A stretch of DNA of 32,708 nt from Candidatus Tepidifontimicrobium thermophilum (lineage in GTDB: Bacteria; Sysuimicrobiota; Sysuimicrobiia; Sysuimicrobiales; Sysuimicrobiaceae): the NCBI GenBank assembly GCA_031459915.1, contig JAVKHO010000005.1, positions 1-32,708 of the forward strand. Reading direction: 5' to 3'. Position numbers and translations under genes: made by a program. Shown piece after piece: positions 18,342 to 32,708 of the stretch. Below the pieces are notes generated by a model. It did no database searches. It saw only the letters and a list, made by a program, of their open reading frames with translations, and was not told the origin of the DNA. The first letter of the stretch is position 1; every line of letters begins with the position of its first letter.

Positions 18342-19337
18342 ATGGCCGCGGCGTTGACCCTCAGCCTCGCCGCGGGGCCGTACGACCGCACCGAGCCGCT
18401 GCGGGACGGGACGGTGCGGCCGGAGGGGATCGACTTAGTGTACGTGCCCCTCGAGGAGCCCCCGGAGGCGTTCCTCAGAGGCCTTGCGGGGGAGTTCGAC
18501 GCCTTCGAGTTCAGCTGTTCCCTGTACTTCTCCCGCCACGCTGCGGGCGACTTCCCCTTCGTGGCCCTGCCCGTGTTCCCGTCGCGGATGTTCCGCCACG
18601 GGTACGCCTTCGTGAGGGAGGGCAGCGGCATCCGGGAGCCCAAGGACCTGGAGGGCAAGCGGGTGGGCATCCCGGAGTTCAGCCAGACCGGGTTGGTGTG
18701 GCTGCGGGGAATCCTGCAGGACGACTACGGGGTGGATTTGCGGTCGGTGGTCTGGGTGGTAGGGGAGGCGAACCGGCCGGGCCGCCGATCCGCGTCCATC
18801 GTGGGCCGTCCGTCGGGCGAGGGATGGAAGCTGGAAGCGGCGCCGGAAGGCTACAGCCTGGACCGCATGCTGGTGGAAGGGCTGCTGGACGCCTACATGG
18901 GGGCCGTGCGCCCCAACAGCTTCGGGGTGGACCTGCGGATCCGCAGACTGTTCCCGAACTACCGGGAGGTGGAGCGGGCGTACTACCTCCGGACGGGCAT
19001 CTTCCCCATCATGCACACGGTGGTGGTGCGGGAGGAGCTAGTACAGCGGCACCCCTGGGTGGCGACCAGCCTGTACAAGGCTTTCTGCCAGGCGAAGGAC
19101 CTAGCCTTCCGGCGCATGGCCCACAGCCCGTCCCTGCGGTACGCCTTGCCGTGGCTGCACGCGGACCTCGAAGAGGCCCGGGAGCTGTTCGGTCCGGATC
19201 CCTGGCCGTATGGCCTGGAGCCGAACCGCACGGTCCTCCAGACCCTGGTTCGCTACCTGCGCGAGCAGGGGCTGCTGACGGGCGAGCTCGTGCTGGAGGA
19301 GGCCTTCGCGCGGGTCAACGTCTTCGAGGGGCAGTAG
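18342..19337 (+). CDS. 4,5-dihydroxyphthalate decarboxylase-like protein (Pht5/OphC family, SBP-like fold), copy 1
   Basis: [74 protein letters not shown]; no signal peptide. Confidence 0.8.
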   Translation: MAAALTLSLAAGPYDRTEPLRDGTVRPEGIDLVYVPLEEPPEAFLRGLAGEFDAFEFSCSLYFSRHAAGDFPFVALPVFPSRMFRHGYAFVREGSGIREPKDLEGKRVGIPEFSQTGLVWLRGILQDDYGVDLRSVVWVVGEANRPGRRSASIVGRPSGEGWKLEAAPEGYSLDRMLVEGLLDAYMGAVRPNSFGVDLRIRRLFPNYREVERAYYLRTGIFPIMHTVVVREELVQRHPWVATSLYKAFCQAKDLAFRRMAHSPSLRYALPWLHADLEEARELFGPDPWPYGLEPNRTVLQTLVRYLREQGLLTGELVLEEAFARVNVFEGQ

Positions 19338-24315: not shown

Positions 24316-25299
24316 CTACTCGTTGACCACGGTCACAGGTGCGAACAGCTCGTCCACGGGGCGCGGACGCTCCACGAAGCCCTGCTCCACCAGGTACCGC
24401 AGGAGGGTCTCCAGGGTCTTGCGGTTAGGCTCCAAGCCGTAGGGCCAGGGATCCTCACCCAGGACGCGCTCCGTCTCTTCCAGCTCCGCGTGCAGCCAGG
24501 GGACCGTGTACCGCAGGGCTCCGCTGAACCGCATCTGCTCCGCGCACCAGGCCTTGGCGGCCACGAACGCCTTGTACAGGCTGTGGACGACCCAGGGGTG
24601 CTGCCGGTACACGGCCTCCCGTACCACCACCGTGTGCATGATCGGGAAGATCCCTGTGCGGCGGTAGTAGTCCTTCTCCACCTCGCGGTAGTCGGGGAAC
24701 AGCCGCACGACCCGCGGGTCCCGGCCCAGGGCGCGGGGGATGCGGGCCCCGATGAGGGCGTCGATCTCCCCCGCCACCAGCATGTCGTTCAGGGTGCGGT
24801 CGAACACCCGCTGGATGGACAGGGGGAAGCGGGGCCACTCCACCAAGGCGTCGGGCCGGCCGATGGCGTTCACCCCTCCCGTGTACCAACGACAGGACCC
24901 CCAGTCCACCCCGTACTCGTCCGCCAGGATCCCCCGGATCCACACCGCCGCGGTCTGGCTGTACTCCGGCACCCCGACCCTCTTGCCGTCGAGGTCCTTC
25001 GGCGTCTCGATCCCGCTGTCCCGGTTCACGAACACGAAACCGTGCCGGAACATGCGGGAAGGGAAAACGGGCAGGGCCACGAAGGGGAAGTCCCCCCGGC
25101 ACTTGCGGATGAAGTACAGGGAGCAGGACATCTCGGAGACGTCGAAGCACTCCGTGGCCACCATCCGGGCGAACAGCTCGGGCGGAGAGGGCACGGGGAC
25201 GTACACCAGCTCGATCCCCTCGGGCCGTACCAGCCCACTGCGGAGGGCTTCCGTGCGGTCGTACGGCCCGCAGGCCAGGCTCAGGCGCAGCTCCGGCAC
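24316..25299 (-). CDS. 4,5-dihydroxyphthalate decarboxylase-like protein (Pht5/OphC family), copy 2
   Basis: GTG at 25299 behind [78 protein letters not shown]. Confidence 0.82.
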
Positions 25300-27229: not shown

Positions 27230-28507
27230 ATGGACGTGGCGGTTGAGGTGGCACGGTCGTCCTACGGGGACCTGGTGGTGGACGACCCGAGGGAGTTCCG
27301 GGTGCACGGGTCCATCTACACCGACCCTCGGATCTTCGAGGAGGAGATGCAGCGGATCTTCGAGCGCACGTGGGTCTACGTGGGGCACGAGTCAGAGCTG
27401 CCGGCCCCCGGAGACTACAAGACGGTCCTGGTGGGCCGCCAGCCGCTCATCCTCTCCCGGCACGAGGACGGCCGGATCTATGCCCTCTATAACCGGTGCC
27501 GGCACCGGGGGGCGGTGGTGTGCCGGGAGGAGCGGGGGCACTCCAACTTCTTCCGCTGCCGCTACCACAACTGGGTATACGCCAACAACGGGGCGCTGAT
27601 TGGCATGGCCCAGGCGTCCGGCTACCCCGAGGACCTGGACCGCAGCCGCTACGGCCTGGTGCCCGCGGCGCGGCTGGAGTCCTACCGGGGCCTGCTGTTC
27701 GTGAACCTGTCGCCCAGGGGCCCGAGCCTGGCCGAGCACCTGGAGCCCGTGCGGAAGTACGTGGACTACTGGTTCGGCCGGTCCCCGTCGGAGCGCATCC
27801 AGGTGATCCTCCCGCCGCACCGGTATGAGTACCCAGGGAACTGGAAGCTGCAGGCGGAGAACGGGTTCGACGGCTACCACGGCAACTACGTCCACCTGTC
27901 CTGGCAGCGGGTGCTCCAGCTGTCCAGGGAGTCCACCGTGGAGGAGGTCCAGCAGTACCGGCAGGAGGGCTGCGTCCGGGGGCTGCGGAACGGCCACGGG
28001 CTTTTGGAACGGCCGGGCAGCCTCAACCCCGCCTCCAGCTGGACCGCCCGCATGATGCACCGCTACCCGGAGTACGCGGAGGCCATGCGGCGGCGGTTCG
28101 ACGACGCGCAGCTCGTGGAGATCTCCGCCCGCCGCAACATCCTCGTGTTCCCCAACCTGTACCTGTTCGACACCCACATCCGGGTGATCGTGCCCAAGGC
28201 GGTGGACCGGACCGAGGTGCAGCTGTACGTGTACGCCCTGGAGGACGTCCCCGAGGCCATCAACCGCAGCCGCTTCCGGGGCCACGAGCGCTTCTACGGT
28301 CCCGCGGGCTTCGGCGCGCCGGACGACATCGAGGTGTTCACCGAGATGCAGACGGGCCTGCGGGCCACCGGCGACCCGTGGAACCTGCTGAACCGCGGGC
28401 AGCACCGGGAGCGGGTGGTGGACGGGGAGGTCATCGGCCACACCACGGACGAGGCCCCGCAGCGGTCCTTCTACCGGGAGTGGAAGCGGGTGATGTCCGA
28501 GGCGTAG
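27230..28507 (+). CDS. Rieske ring-hydroxylating oxygenase alpha subunit (benzoate/p-cumate-type group)
   Basis: Rieske CRHRG...CRYH; GNWKLQAENGFDGYHGNYVH; RNILVFPNL; FYGPAGFGAPDDIEVF.EMQ.GL; DEAPQRSFYREW; GGAGGAGG SD. Confidence 0.9.
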   Translation: MDVAVEVARSSYGDLVVDDPREFRVHGSIYTDPRIFEEEMQRIFERTWVYVGHESELPAPGDYKTVLVGRQPLILSRHEDGRIYALYNRCRHRGAVVCREERGHSNFFRCRYHNWVYANNGALIGMAQASGYPEDLDRSRYGLVPAARLESYRGLLFVNLSPRGPSLAEHLEPVRKYVDYWFGRSPSERIQVILPPHRYEYPGNWKLQAENGFDGYHGNYVHLSWQRVLQLSRESTVEEVQQYRQEGCVRGLRNGHGLLERPGSLNPASSWTARMMHRYPEYAEAMRRRFDDAQLVEISARRNILVFPNLYLFDTHIRVIVPKAVDRTEVQLYVYALEDVPEAINRSRFRGHERFYGPAGFGAPDDIEVFTEMQTGLRATGDPWNLLNRGQHRERVVDGEVIGHTTDEAPQRSFYREWKRVMSEA

Positions 28508-28519
28508 GGGGAGGGAAGG

Positions 28520-29014
28520 ATGCTGACCGTAGACGAGGCGGAGCGGTTCCTGGTGGCGGAGGCGCGGCTGCTGGACGAGCGCCGCTTCGACGAGTGGGAG
28601 GCCCTGTTCACCGAGGACGCGGTGTACTGGGTGCCCATGGACCCCGACCGCGACCCCGCGGACACTGTGTCCATCATCTACGACGACCGCAAGCGGCTGC
28701 ACGAGCGTGTGTACCGGCTGACGCGGACCCCCGTCCTGGACCAGAACCCGCCGTCCCGCACCGTGCGGTTTGTGGCCAACGTGGAGGTGGAGTCCCTGGA
28801 CGGGGCGGGGGAGCACCGCGTCCGGTGCAACCAGCTCATCGCGGAGATGCGACCGGGAGGGCCCGGGCAGGCGGGCCTGAACAGCCCCCGATGGCTGGCG
28901 GCCCGCTGCGAGTACCGCCTCCGTCCCGTGGACGGGGGGTGGCGGATCGCCTTCAAGAAGGTGGTCCTGCTGGACGCAGACCAGGCCCAGTACAACCTCT
29001 CCTTCATCCCCTGA
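28520..29014 (+). CDS. Aromatic ring-hydroxylating oxygenase beta subunit
   Basis: FLVAEARLLDERRFDEWEALF.EDA.YWVP, SIIYDD, QNPPSRTVR.VANV, WRIAFKKV.LL. Confidence 0.9.
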   Translation: MLTVDEAERFLVAEARLLDERRFDEWEALFTEDAVYWVPMDPDRDPADTVSIIYDDRKRLHERVYRLTRTPVLDQNPPSRTVRFVANVEVESLDGAGEHRVRCNQLIAEMRPGGPGQAGLNSPRWLAARCEYRLRPVDGGWRIAFKKVVLLDADQAQYNLSFIP

Positions 29015-29024
29015 GGAGGGCACT

Positions 29025-29495
29025 ATGGACCTGTACGGGCGGCCCTGGCGGGTGGAGCGGCCCCTGGGCACGGTGGGACGGGTGGAGGTGAGCCGGTACG
29101 AGACGCCCACGGGCGTCCGGCTGCGGCTGCGGGATCGGGAGGGGGAGGTGGAGGCGTTCCTGGACCCCCTGGAACTGGAAGGCCTCACCCGAGCCCGCTA
29201 CAAGCCGGTCCCGGCCCTGCCCTTGGCCACGGGGGACGGTGCGGAGCAGGCGGCGGAGGCTTGGCGGACGTGGGGAGAACTTTCGGAGCGGCTACAGAAC
29301 GAGTTCGCCCTCGTGGCGGTGGCCCTGGTGGGTACCGAAGGCCTGCTGGTGCGGGACATGAACGCGGGGCTGGCCGTGCTCCTGTCGCCCCGTGAGGTGG
29401 AAATCCTCCTCCGGGTCCGGCACATGGACCTGGCGCCCCTGGTGGACACCAGCGACCTGGTGGCCCTGCCCGAGCCGGACGTGGACGAGGAATAG
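29025..29495 (+). CDS. Hypothetical oxygenase-associated protein with apparent internal duplication
   Basis: GAGGAGG SD; two similar segments (V.VS..ET..G.RL.LRD......LDPLELE.L and NEFA.V.V.....L.VRD......LSPREVE.L). Confidence 0.75.
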   Translation: MDLYGRPWRVERPLGTVGRVEVSRYETPTGVRLRLRDREGEVEAFLDPLELEGLTRARYKPVPALPLATGDGAEQAAEAWRTWGELSERLQNEFALVAVALVGTEGLLVRDMNAGLAVLLSPREVEILLRVRHMDLAPLVDTSDLVALPEPDVDEE

Positions 29496-29501
29496 GCGGT
29501 C

Positions 29502-30236
29502 GTGTGGGGACGGGCGGCGACGCTGTCGGAGGCCCGCGACCAGCTGGTCCTGGCCAACCGGATCCTCGTCCGGCTGGGGTTGCTGGACTCCATGGGCCAC
29601 GTGAGCGTGCGCAATCCAGAGGACCCATCCACTTATCTGCTCTCGTGGTCGAAGGCGCCCCGGTGGGTGACCGCAGAGGACGTGTTGATCTTCGACCTGG
29701 ACGGGGTGGACCTGACCGGCTCCGGGAAGCCGCCGTACATGGAGCGGGCCCTCCACGGGGAGGTGTACCGGGTGCGGACCGACGTACATGCGGTGGTCCA
29801 CACCCACATGCCCTCCGTCTTGCCCTTCGGCCTTGCGGCTCGGCCCATCCGCGCGGTGGTCCACTCCGCCGCCATGTTCTGGGACGGGGTTCCCGTGTAC
29901 GACGACTACTACGACCCCGAGCACGAGGGCGTGTACGTGATCTCCCAGGAGCAGGCCCGCCGGATGGCGGCAGTCCTGGGCTCGCACCGGGCGGTGCTGC
30001 TCCGGGGCCACGGGTGCGTGGTGGTGGGGAGCACGTTGCCGGAGCTGGTGGTGAGCACCTACTCCCTGGACCAGAACTGCAGGGTCCAGTGGCTGACGGA
30101 GGCCGTGGCCCCCGCGAAGCCCCTCAGCGAGGTGGAAGCCCGCGCCATGCTGCGGGTGCGGCTCGGGGAGATCGGCATCCGCCGGGCGTGGGAGAATTGG
30201 GTGCAGGAGCTCCGGGAAGCGGGCTGGCTCCCGTAG
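29502..30236 (+). CDS. Class II aldolase/adducin-family protein, probable aromatic/heteroaromatic carboxylate decarboxylase
   Basis: ANRIL...GLLDSMGHVSVR.PEDP, PYMER.LHGEVYR.R.DV.AVVHTH, VLLRGHG.VVVG, RAWENW; recalled resemblance to 3-hydroxy-2-methylpyridine-4,5-dicarboxylate decarboxylase-type members. Confidence 0.8.
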   Translation: MWGRAATLSEARDQLVLANRILVRLGLLDSMGHVSVRNPEDPSTYLLSWSKAPRWVTAEDVLIFDLDGVDLTGSGKPPYMERALHGEVYRVRTDVHAVVHTHMPSVLPFGLAARPIRAVVHSAAMFWDGVPVYDDYYDPEHEGVYVISQEQARRMAAVLGSHRAVLLRGHGCVVVGSTLPELVVSTYSLDQNCRVQWLTEAVAPAKPLSEVEARAMLRVRLGEIGIRRAWENWVQELREAGWLP

Positions 30237-30262: not shown

Positions 30263-31084
30263 GTGCTGGGGCAATCCCCGTGGGCCCGGGAGTCCCTCCG
30301 GCGCACCGTGAGCCGTTCGTCGGACGCCTTCCTCTACACCGTGCTCCCGGTGGTGGGAGTGGCGGCGGCCTGGCACGCGGCGGCCTCCCTGGCCGTACTG
30401 CCACCGCACCTCCTGCCTCCCCCAGACCGCGTCTTGGCCCGCATCCTCGAGGCGGTGCGAAGCGGCGTGCTGGTGTCGAACCTCCTCCTCACGGTGCAGC
30501 GGGTGGTGGTCGCCTTCGTAGCGGCCCTGGGCATCAGCCTTCCCGTGGGAGCGGCCATGGGCTTCCTGCCCGCCGTGGAGCGCCTGCTCACCCCCTGGCT
30601 GGTGGTGGCGCTCTCCGTGCCAGGGCTCATCTGGGCTCTGGTGGCGCTCCTGCTGTTCGGTCTGTCCGAGCTCACGGTGTACACCGCCATCGCCGCGGGG
30701 CTTGTGCCCATGTTCGTAGTGAACTGGTGGCAGGGGGTGAAGGCCCTGGACCGGGACCTGCTGATTATGGCGCGGGTGTACCGGGCCACCGGCTGGAGCG
30801 TCGCCCGCGACGTGGTCCTCCCTCAGCTGATCCCTCAACTGTTCGCTTCCGCCCGCTACGGGCTGGCGTGGGGTTGGAAGATCGTGGTGGTGATCGAGAT
30901 GCTCGGCTTCGGCAACGGCGTGGGCTACCTGCTGTACGAGTCGTACCACCTCTTCAGCATGGAGCGCGTCCTGGCGTGGGCACTGGCTTTCCTCGCGGTG
31001 ATGCTGGCCTTGGAGTATGGGGTGATCGCTCCGCTGGAGCGCCGGTGGACGGCGTGGCGGCCGCGGGTGGGCTTGGGGGGGTGA
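30263..31084 (+). CDS. ABC transporter permease, NitT/TauT family
   Basis: GTG at 30263 behind GGAGGGG; LLPPPDRV, SVPGLIWA, DRDLLIMARVYRA, ARYGLAWGWKIVVVIEMLG..NGVGY. Confidence 0.88.
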   Translation: MLGQSPWARESLRRTVSRSSDAFLYTVLPVVGVAAAWHAAASLAVLPPHLLPPPDRVLARILEAVRSGVLVSNLLLTVQRVVVAFVAALGISLPVGAAMGFLPAVERLLTPWLVVALSVPGLIWALVALLLFGLSELTVYTAIAAGLVPMFVVNWWQGVKALDRDLLIMARVYRATGWSVARDVVLPQLIPQLFASARYGLAWGWKIVVVIEMLGFGNGVGYLLYESYHLFSMERVLAWALAFLAVMLALEYGVIAPLERRWTAWRPRVGLGG

Positions 31085-31088
31085 GACC

Positions 31089-32708
31089 ATGGGGGTCCGG
31101 GTGGAGATCCGCGACCTGGTGAAGCGGTTTCCCGATGGGCGGGGCGGCTGGCTTCCGGTACTGGGGGGAGTCTCCCTGGAGGTCGACGGACTCGTCTGCG
31201 TGCTGGGTCCTTCGGGGTGCGGCAAGTCGACCCTGCTCAACGTGGTGGCGGGGGTGGAGCGTCCGGACGGCGGCGAGGTGCGCTTCTACCGGGCGGGCGA
31301 ACCGGTGGGACGGGAGGCGGTGAGGATCGGCTACGTGTTCCAGGACCCGCGCCTCCTCAGCTGGCGTACGGTTCGCCACAACGTGGAGTTCGGACTCCAG
31401 AGCCTGAGGCTGTCCCGAGCAGAGACGCGGGCCCGTGCCTGGACATACCTGCAGTTGGTGGGCCTGCAGGACTTCGCGGACCGGTTCCCCCTGTTCCTCT
31501 CCGGCGGGATGCGGCAACGGGTCGGACTCGCCCGAGCCCTGGCTCTCGAGCCGGACGTCATCCTGATGGACGAACCTTTCAGCAAGCTGGATGAGATCAC
31601 CGCACGGGAGCTGCGCCAGGAGCTCCTGCAGATCCAGGGAAGGTTGGGCCAGCGGATCCTCTTCGTGACCCACAATCCCTCCGAGGCGGCCCTGTTAGGG
31701 GACCGGATCTACGTGCTGTCGGGTCGGCCCGCCCGGGTGGTGGCGGAGGTCTCCAACCCACTGCCCAAGCCCCGGCAGGCGGACGGCCCTGAGGTGGCTG
31801 CTCTGGCGCGGGAGATCGTGGGCTACCTGGAGGGGCAGGGAACTCTGACCCGTCGCGCTTTCCTGCGGACGGGGACCGCTTTGCTGGCGGGGCTGGCATC
31901 GGCAGCCGTGCCCTGGACGGCGGCCGGCCGGGCGTGGGCGCAGCCTCGGGTGGACGTCAGCGTGGCCGCGGTGGGCGCCACGGGGCTCCTGGTGCGGCTG
32001 GTGAAGGACCTGGGGCTGGACCGCAAGCACGGGGTGGAGCTGAACATCGTCCCGCTGGCTGTGGCCGACGCGGAGCGGGCGGTGGTGCAGGGCCGGGTAC
32101 CCGTGGGCATCTTCAACCCCTTCTCCGCGGTCCGCGCGGTGGCGGAGGGGCATCCGCTCAAGCTGTTCGCGCCGTTTCTGCTCAACCACAACTACCTGTT
32201 GGTGCGGTCAGAGGCACCGTACCGGAGGCTGGAGGACCTGCGGGGCAAGCCCGTGGGCAGCCTGTCCAAGATCAGCGGCACCTACAACACCTTCGCCGCC
32301 ATCTGCTATGCGAAGGGCCTGGGGGATCCCGAGCGGTACTTCCAGCTGCGGTTCGGGGAGGCGGTACCGCTCATCGCGCTCATGGAGCGCGGCGACCTGG
32401 AAGCGATCGCGGTCTTCGAGGCGCACGTGTCGCGGCTGCTGGCCACCGGGCGCTACCGCGTCCTGTTGGAGTTCAACGAGGAGTTCCGCCGCATGACCGC
32501 TTCCGACAACCTGTTCATCGCCCTGGCCGCCAGGCCCGCGTGGCTGAATGCCAACGCTACCGCCGCGCGCCAGATCCGGGCGGCCCTAGCCGACGCCGTG
32601 GCGGCCTTCCGTCAGAACCCCGCGGGGGTCCTGGAACGTTACGGGCGGGAGATCTTCGGGCTTACAGGCCAGGAGGAGATCCAGCTGGCAGCGCGGCGGC
32701 TGCGGTTC
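31089..32708 (+). CDS. ABC ATP-binding domain (NitT/TauT) continuing in frame via a Tat-type signal peptide into an SsuA/NMT1-like substrate-binding domain; 3'-truncated by window edge
   Basis: Hand translation from ATG 31089: GPSGCGKST, VFQDPRLLSW, LSGGMRQR, ILMDEPF, FVTHN ... EIVGYLEGQGTLTRRAFLRTGTALLAGLASAAVPWTAAGRAWA-QPRVDVSVAAV...LEDLRGKPVG...LMERGDLEA; 540 codons with no stop, hence absent from the supplied track. Confidence 0.85.
   Translation, partial: MGVRVEIRDLVKRFPDGRGGWLPVLGGVSLEVDGLVCVLGPSGCGKSTLLNVVAGVERPDGGEVRFYRAGEPVGREAVRIGYVFQDPRLLSWRTVRHNVEFGLQSLRLSRAETRARAWTYLQLVGLQDFADRFPLFLSGGMRQRVGLARALALEPDVILMDEPFSKLDEITARELRQELLQIQGRLGQRILFVTHNPSEAALLGDRIYVLSGRPARVVAEVSNPLPKPRQADGPEVAALAREIVGYLEGQGTLTRRAFLRTGTALLAGLASAAVPWTAAGRAWAQPRVDVSVAAVGATGLLVRLVKDLGLDRKHGVELNIVPLAVADAERAVVQGRVPVGIFNPFSAVRAVAEGHPLKLFAPFLLNHNYLLVRSEAPYRRLEDLRGKPVGSLSKISGTYNTFAAICYAKGLGDPERYFQLRFGEAVPLIALMERGDLEAIAVFEAHVSRLLATGRYRVLLEFNEEFRRMTASDNLFIALAARPAWLNANATAARQIRAALADAVAAFRQNPAGVLERYGREIFGLTGQEEIQLAARRLRF

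Follow-up and report, generated by a model that had tools for sequence, protein, structure and literature searches.

In known fusions, ABC importer subunits share one side of the membrane or are linked via the permease; joining a soluble ATPase to an external binding protein requires an export route that splits the chain across the membrane. A bacterial two-protein precursor that is split at an internal signal peptide is the fbcH cytochrome b-c1 precursor of Bradyrhizobium, in which, unlike in the fusion described here, a membrane protein lies upstream and transport is not known to be Tat-dependent. The fusions mentioned in the accessible text of PMC8276074 are of the ATPase-permease and binding protein-permease types only. 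Five classes of twin-arginine (Tat) substrate are named in a 2026 review (PMC13673990), whose accessible text does not include among them an internal signal cut by signal peptidase I. In the class V substrate FecR the signal is internal, follows a folded cis domain and is not cleaved (PMC13673990), and the twin-arginine motif lies at R79-R80 (PMC12036975). FecR thus indicates, as far as these partly accessible sources go, that Tat is able to act behind a folded cytoplasmic domain (PMC13673990, PMC12036975). A paper on a loop mechanism in thylakoids is cited in the accessible part of PMC13186574.

The closest whole-chain matches to the protein described here are the cyanobacterial NrtC and CmpC (PDB entries 8wm7 and 9u9z), which likewise place a NitT/TauT ATPase N-terminal to a binding-protein-like domain; in these proteins, however, that domain binds PII and acts as a regulator in the cytoplasm, and NrtA is a protein of its own (PMC10945777, accessible part). 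The SsuABC and TauABC importers and PqqT (PDB entries 9b1u and 9b1v) share the permease, the ATPase and the class II binding fold, but as separate subunits. No published description of an architecture in which an ATPase, a twin-arginine signal and a binding protein follow one another in a single chain was found in the literature searched, which covered few subscription papers.

The fused frame and its operon

The window analysed here is a stretch of 32,708 nt (contig JAVKHO010000005.1, positions 1 to 32,708) from the hot-spring organism Candidatus Tepidifontimicrobium thermophilum. Its first-pass annotation had described an uninterrupted frame for an ATPase and a binding protein, containing the motif TRRAFLR, an uncharged stretch, the tripeptide AWA and the tetranucleotide CTGA. 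All of these elements lie where they had been placed. From ATG 31089 onward the frame stays open up to the last position of the window (540 residues, without a stop), and both domains are matched in Pfam-type searches (ABC_tran at residues 31–164, E 7e-28; NMT1/Phosphonate-bd at residues 310–512, E ~1e-9). TRRAFLR occupies 31848–31868, with the motif beginning at residue 254 and its arginines at 255–256, and CTGA lies at 31845–31848. The peptide spanning the ATPase/signal junction is EIVGYLEGQGTLTR. The operon and the parts of the frame are as follows.

27230..30236, + strand: upstream operon genes, for Rieske dioxygenase alpha and beta, a hypothetical protein and a class II aldolase/decarboxylase-like gene
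30263..31084, + strand: ABC permease, SsuC/TauC/NrtB-like (BPD_transp_1, E 4e-17); start codon uncertain, 30263 or 30308
31089..31829, + strand: NitT/TauT-type ABC ATPase domain, residues 1–247; Walker A, LSGGM signature, Walker B and H-loop intact
31830..31847, + strand: linker EGQGTL; final codon CTG, which is GTG in five relatives and CTT in one strain
31848..31865, + strand: internal twin-arginine motif TRRAFL; R, R, F and L unchanged across all ten representatives
31869..31931, + strand: signal h- and c-region, 20 uncharged residues followed by R
31932..31940, + strand: predicted signal peptidase I site A-W-A, with the predicted cut before Q285
31941..32708, + strand: substrate-binding domain, NMT1/SsuA-like class II fold, with 39 further residues past the window

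A false scaffold gap follows directly on the window, with 97 N and then an exact 130-nt copy of 32579–32708 (G000:C29:32709-32935, where G000 is the genome of the window); after this repeat the frame resumes for 39 residues, giving a total of 579 aa, the same length as near-identical homologues. The gap shortens the deposited protein to 540 aa.

The operon contains a NitT/TauT importer set, comprising an intact ATPase, a BPD_transp_1 permease and an NMT1/SsuA-type binding domain. The fusion reaches no NCBIfam equivalog cut-off, and SsuC and TauC models score the permease under their cut-offs; an orthologue of the permease, 80–98% identical, adjoins the ATPase in nine related loci. Neither in the window nor in the related loci does the operon contain a gene for a second binding protein. 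The gene order of the upstream part of the operon is identical in genome G006, a zinc dehydrogenase gene and an MFS-like gene lie 3' of the fusion gene, and a meta-cleavage cluster is divergent from the operon. Judged from gene context only, the substrate is likely an aromatic acid that feeds the neighbouring dioxygenase/meta-cleavage cluster; OphFGH, which appears as a phthalate ABC importer in a table of PMC10973024 (accessible part), is a lead for the substrate class.

Between the genes for dioxygenase beta and the aldolase-like protein, a 156-aa protein (29025–29495, + strand) without a Pfam or NCBIfam match is kept at 76–99% in the operon of five related loci. The aromatic cluster also contains two paralogues of ~330 aa with the N-terminus LSLA[AC]GPYDRTE (18342–19337, + strand; 24316–25299, - strand), for which NCBIfam gave zero matches at 1e-12; they presumably resemble 4,5-dihydroxyphthalate decarboxylase.

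An AlphaFold model of the fusion has two domains, a low-confidence linker, a helix at residues 256–269 and the first strand of the binding domain at residue 287. The model is modest (pLDDT 68.5, pTM 0.50), with pLDDT below 50 at residues 226–283 and without reliable domain-domain contact. The binding domain matches PqqT (PDB entry 9b1v) with a TM-score of 0.85 by target length and an r.m.s.d. of 2.9. NrtC and CmpC are the top whole-protein matches in both Atlas and Foldseek, as would be expected if the binding domain remained in the cytoplasm as a regulator, like their C-terminal domains. That reading is barely plausible here: the phmmer match to NrtC/CmpC spans the ATPase alone (residues 10–271), NrtABCD has its separate NrtA (PMC10945777, accessible part), and the binding domain of the fusion, unlike its counterpart in NrtC/CmpC, is the sole binding protein of the operon and is located behind an export signal. 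The orthologues bear signals and would be exported, and the signal is conserved in the fusion. The lack of another binding protein in the operon, together with the separate, signal-bearing orthologues, suggests that the binding domain must act outside.

Integrity of the junction

The fusion is real and not an assembly slip. The junction was compared in 8 of the 24 listed sequencing runs, with assembled contigs as the form of all read support, and is covered in seven of these eight with zero indels. The seven include three divergent strains and one RNA contig; runs X2 and X6 are a possible source of the assembly itself. The divergent strains X15, X16 and X17 carry 13, 22 and 22 substitutions, respectively, in ~500 nt and no gap, and the RNA contig (X13) is identical in sequence and spans the junction, which is weak evidence of transcription. 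In X8, two contigs reach the junction, neither bridging it by 31 nt on both sides, and X21, the sole raw-read run (RNA), gave no matching reads in a sample of ~3% of the run.

A protein search with residues 200–540 returned 14 matches, comprising eight full-length fusions, one partial fusion and five stand-alone binding proteins. The full-length fusions (clusters at 90% identity) have 579–588 aa, are 80–96% identical and differ in junction length by whole codons only; six of seven metagenome loci are fused. Across 94 GTDB genomes the binding protein occurs in four, all of one genus, in which it is fused (G000), separate (G006 and G007) or broken at contig ends (G004). The separate-gene form, found in three close relatives, is an orthologue of ~75% identity with a Sec-like N-terminal signal, and a stand-alone homologue of 50% identity carries an N-terminal SRRDFLK.

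These results bear on points that the first-pass annotation had raised. Its alternative, an extra base that creates the fusion, fails on the seven indel-free runs and on the eight fused clusters with whole-codon length differences, which together rule out an assembly error. Relatives with the same order of ATPase, twin-arginine motif and binding protein were found in the eight clusters; the case that it had set against a fusion, all close homologues being separate genes, applies to three relatives only.

Long chance open frames are common in this GC-rich phylum: each of the 15 long NMT1 frames checked, among the matches listed (592 more matches lie beyond these), was an off-frame read-through with no Walker A. 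Unlike these long frames of other genomes, both halves of the fusion are genuine in-frame domains. Values of dN/dS, pooled over five loci, of 0.15 for the ATPase and 0.12 for the binding domain indicate that both are under purifying selection.

Outside this clade, no NitT/TauT fusion was found among the other 112 proteins of the best 120 of 3938 matches, which are mostly tandem ATPases or long single ATPases, and a second Atlas search for further fusions gave ATPase fragments only. Proteins P0049–P0083 are tandem NitT/TauT ATPases of 510–690 aa with two Walker A motifs, like a fused NrtC/NrtD pair. Two loci of the same genus have unusual layouts. At one (L003, G007:C68), the ATPase and the binding protein share one frame that is split by a single TAA inside the Shine-Dalgarno (SD) word TAAGGAGG, one substitution away from a second, Sec-type fusion. 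At the other (L033, G004:C63:19703-21355), the 5' part of the permease runs into the interior of the gene for the binding protein; the join is out of frame and close to a contig end, and the same stretch also begins contig C27; from its appearance, misassembly or a deletion is likely.

With no stop between the domains, each ATPase made carries the signal and the binding domain, barring a ribosomal frame shift. It is highly improbable that no fused protein is made in vivo, whether through an assembly or strain error or through programmed +1 frameshifting, with the ATPase terminating at TGA 31846. The tetranucleotide NTGA does occur in seven of seven fused loci, and GTGA is the commonest overlap candidate in the genome (323 of 537). 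However, NTGA is explained by codon bias plus Thr/Ser, a shared slippery word is absent from the codon alignment, and, beside the zero indels in seven runs and the eight fused clusters, the TGA is lost in strain X15. The substitution in X15, G31847T, converts CTG to CTT and abolishes both the overlapping +1 TGA and the candidate internal start; this allele is present in one strain only and could be non-functional.

Internal start and origin of the junction

An in-frame second start just before the twin-arginine motif would yield an ordinary exported Tat precursor and make the read-through ATPase a tolerated extra copy. In this lineage, where the candidate codon is CTG, or CTT in X15, the sequence makes such a start unlikely; among operon gene pairs, only 5 of 1284 lack ATG, GTG or TTG near the upstream stop, none of them with a clear SD word, so CTG starts are hardly needed. 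The case is better in the lineages in which the codon before [TS]RR is GTG (five of seven fused loci), where a second start may be active. By a start-site matrix, the upstream 20 nt rank at the 94–99th percentile of internal GTGs in six of seven loci, GGAGG-like words lie 11–14 nt upstream of the candidate start in all seven, the anti-SD energy falls in the top 1–17% of internal GTGs with a wider window (the pairing energies themselves being middling), and homologue P0009 has a Met two residues ahead of the motif. Against this, at 496 reference starts SD words are enriched at a spacing of 4–9 nt (40% versus 6%) and not at a spacing of 10–14 nt (6.7% versus a 6.1% background). GTG makes up 70% of Val codons, and V, L or I directly precedes [ST]RR in 11 of 11 native Tat signals. 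Even with a second start, the full-length chain would still be made, still with a usable signal, and overall we regard the second-start explanation as rather unlikely.

Two further codons were considered as conserved in-frame starts and rejected as not universal: the (C/T)TG behind GAGGTG, which is CTC in L026, and GTG 31818, which is GTA in L023.

The last linker codon is probably a fossil of an NTGA (GTGA) start/stop overlap that was brought into frame. The best trees, from which seven near-duplicate, partial or very distant rows were left out, place the three separate-gene forms among the fused ones, but topologies with a clade of fused forms are also accepted (p-AU 0.43 and 0.28); the trees fit either fusion or later fission for this mixed genus.

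Export and processing of the precursor

The segment behind the ATPase has the features of a Tat substrate, namely a motif that fits the S/T-R-R-x-F-L consensus (PMC13673990), a hydrophobic h-region and a host with TatA and TatC. The genome encodes TatC, three TatA, signal peptidase I, Omp85 and RseP. [ST]RRxFL is present in all 33 long members listed from the eight fused clusters, and in P0003. Across ten representatives the R, R, F and L of the motif are invariant, versus two of eight columns in the linker and two of 23 in the h- and c-region, and the arginine codons change synonymously, with five different codon pairs in seven loci. The h-region comprises 15–31 uncharged residues (KD19 1.29–1.87) and keeps its hydrophobicity while its sequence drifts; the pooled dN/dS, rough for such short regions, is 0.62 for the h- and c-region and 0.11 for the AxA triplet. 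The signal is followed by [AVG]xAQ in ten of ten representatives, a feature shared by 7 of the genome's 11 native N-terminal Tat signals. The strict retention of RRxFL argues for recognition by TatC, and the conservation pattern as a whole supports an internal segment that behaves like a Tat signal under selection. In the genome's called genes (~499,000 residues; these are our own gene calls, and the rates derived from them are approximate), [ST]RRx[FL]L past residue 120 occurs ten times, and in two of the ten it is accompanied by an uncharged run of at least 15 residues plus AxA-Q, in the fusion and in a membrane molybdoenzyme on contig C5.

The reading that we favour, with a probability of roughly 0.55 based on these sequence features, is Tat export plus signal peptidase I cleavage from one precursor. 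One precursor of 579 residues would carry the ATPase, then the twin-arginine signal, then the binding protein. The folded binding domain would be exported by Tat while the ATPase stays cytoplasmic, and a cut by signal peptidase I after AWA would release the binding domain in the periplasm. On the ATPase, ~37 extra residues would remain, forming a C-terminal membrane stub beside the permease; alternatively, the stub may be removed by an intramembrane protease such as RseP. We infer translation as one chain, the use of Tat, the cleavage and the fate of the stub. From Omp85, the host appears to have an outer membrane; the term 'outer membrane' is absent from the accessible text of PMC11604079 on the likely phylum.

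With AxA-Q in ten of ten representatives and the binding fold starting ~3 residues later, release is suggested rather than a tether, and after release a 1:1 ratio would hold only at synthesis. The polyprotein proposal of the first-pass annotation therefore stands in part: the fusion is genuine and its signal appears to be under selection, but the lasting tether with fixed 1:1 stoichiometry runs counter to the conserved AxA-Q. As in FecR, a twin-arginine motif lies behind a folded cytoplasmic domain and a C-terminal domain would be exported by Tat (PMC13673990, PMC12036975, accessible parts); in contrast to FecR, an ATPase of 247 residues forms the cis domain, the two arginines lie at residues 255–256 and the conserved AxA-Q suggests release by signal peptidase I. 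The complete folded ATPase domain ahead of an internal signal is a class V trait, and the predicted AxA site, with signal peptidase I in the genome, is a class I trait, whereas the position of the motif at residue 254 departs from the N-terminal signal of class I. The protein is probably class V-like at export and class I-like at cleavage, and cleanly neither.

If Tat exported the binding domain and no cut followed, ATPase, helix and binding protein would stay together as one single-pass chain, tethered at a fixed 1:1 ratio, and the protein would belong in class V beside FecR. The h-region of the fusions is more hydrophobic than native Tat signals of the genome (mean KD19 1.64 versus 1.22), so that partial or no cleavage is possible, and class V is defined as non-cleaved (PMC13673990, accessible part). 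We nevertheless consider the uncleaved form improbable, given AxA-Q in ten of ten representatives at a dN/dS of 0.11, the absence of a flexible tether before the first strand at residue 287, and the outer membrane that Omp85 suggests for the host.

A set of analogues from an unrelated ABC family bears on the same point. The PotA-like ATPase of this genome was searched against longer proteins, and 37 proteins with a binding-protein Pfam family were found among the 120 matches listed. In 32 of these 37 metagenomic fusions (P0203 and P0229 groups), among the matches listed, RR precedes a hydrophobic helix, and the order ATPase, TOBE, binding domain holds in five of five checked; members of group A are labelled Actinomycetota. 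They share with the present fusion the order of parts and the RR before a hydrophobic helix, but belong to a different ATPase subfamily, with a TOBE domain, and have a different binding fold; since neither is related to its counterpart here, their origin would be independent. The 29 members of the main groups, from which eight singleton, non-RR or lipobox-like rows were dropped, have a mean KD19 of 2.2–2.3, a long G/S/T/P tether after the helix and AxA-Q in none of the 29. By sequence they look like uncleaved anchors, exactly the appearance that an uncleaved form of the present fusion would share; its KD19 of 1.64 lies below theirs, and the difference sharpens the case for a cleaved signal. 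In P0194, P0202, P0277 and P0253, mostly singletons, the internal helix of a PotA-type fusion ends in a lipobox-like cysteine; sequencing errors could account for them, or they may be lipoprotein variants of this architecture.

The last ATPase helix ends only ~6 residues before the twin-arginine motif, a spacing that may hinder TatC binding. In a further reading, a cytoplasmic cut in the linker would free a normal N-terminal Tat precursor, or Sec/YidC would handle the helix and the RR would be incidental. The linker is predicted to be disordered (pLDDT below 50 for residues 226–283), and the separate-gene relatives carry the orthologue with Sec-like signals; however, the linker has no conserved protease site, G alone being invariant, and RRxFL is strictly kept, so that both variants seem quite improbable beside Tat export and signal peptidase I cleavage of the intact precursor.

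If true, that processing route lies outside the listed classes of Tat substrates. We put at even odds the broader proposal of a sixth class: an internal twin-arginine signal behind a 250-residue enzyme in a polyprotein cut by signal peptidase I, which would place two importer subunits on opposite sides of the membrane from one start codon. In this proposal the layout would have two or more separate origins in unrelated ABC families, with a cleaved form in the present diderm host and an apparently tethered one in the PotA-type groups. Fused and unfused orthologues that are ~75–80% identical within one genus provide a ready test system for the size of folded domain that Tat tolerates just upstream of RR, and for signal peptidase I processing of such chains. 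Annotation pipelines call such proteins ATPases or two-name fusions, and predictors of N-terminal signals would overlook them.

The protein on contig C5 (G000:C5:66315-67862, - strand) has several hydrophobic segments, then an internal TRRELL, an h-region, AWAQ and a sulfite-oxidase-like molybdoenzyme domain, a label assigned by eye; it resembles a class IV Tat substrate, yet has an AxA-Q site.
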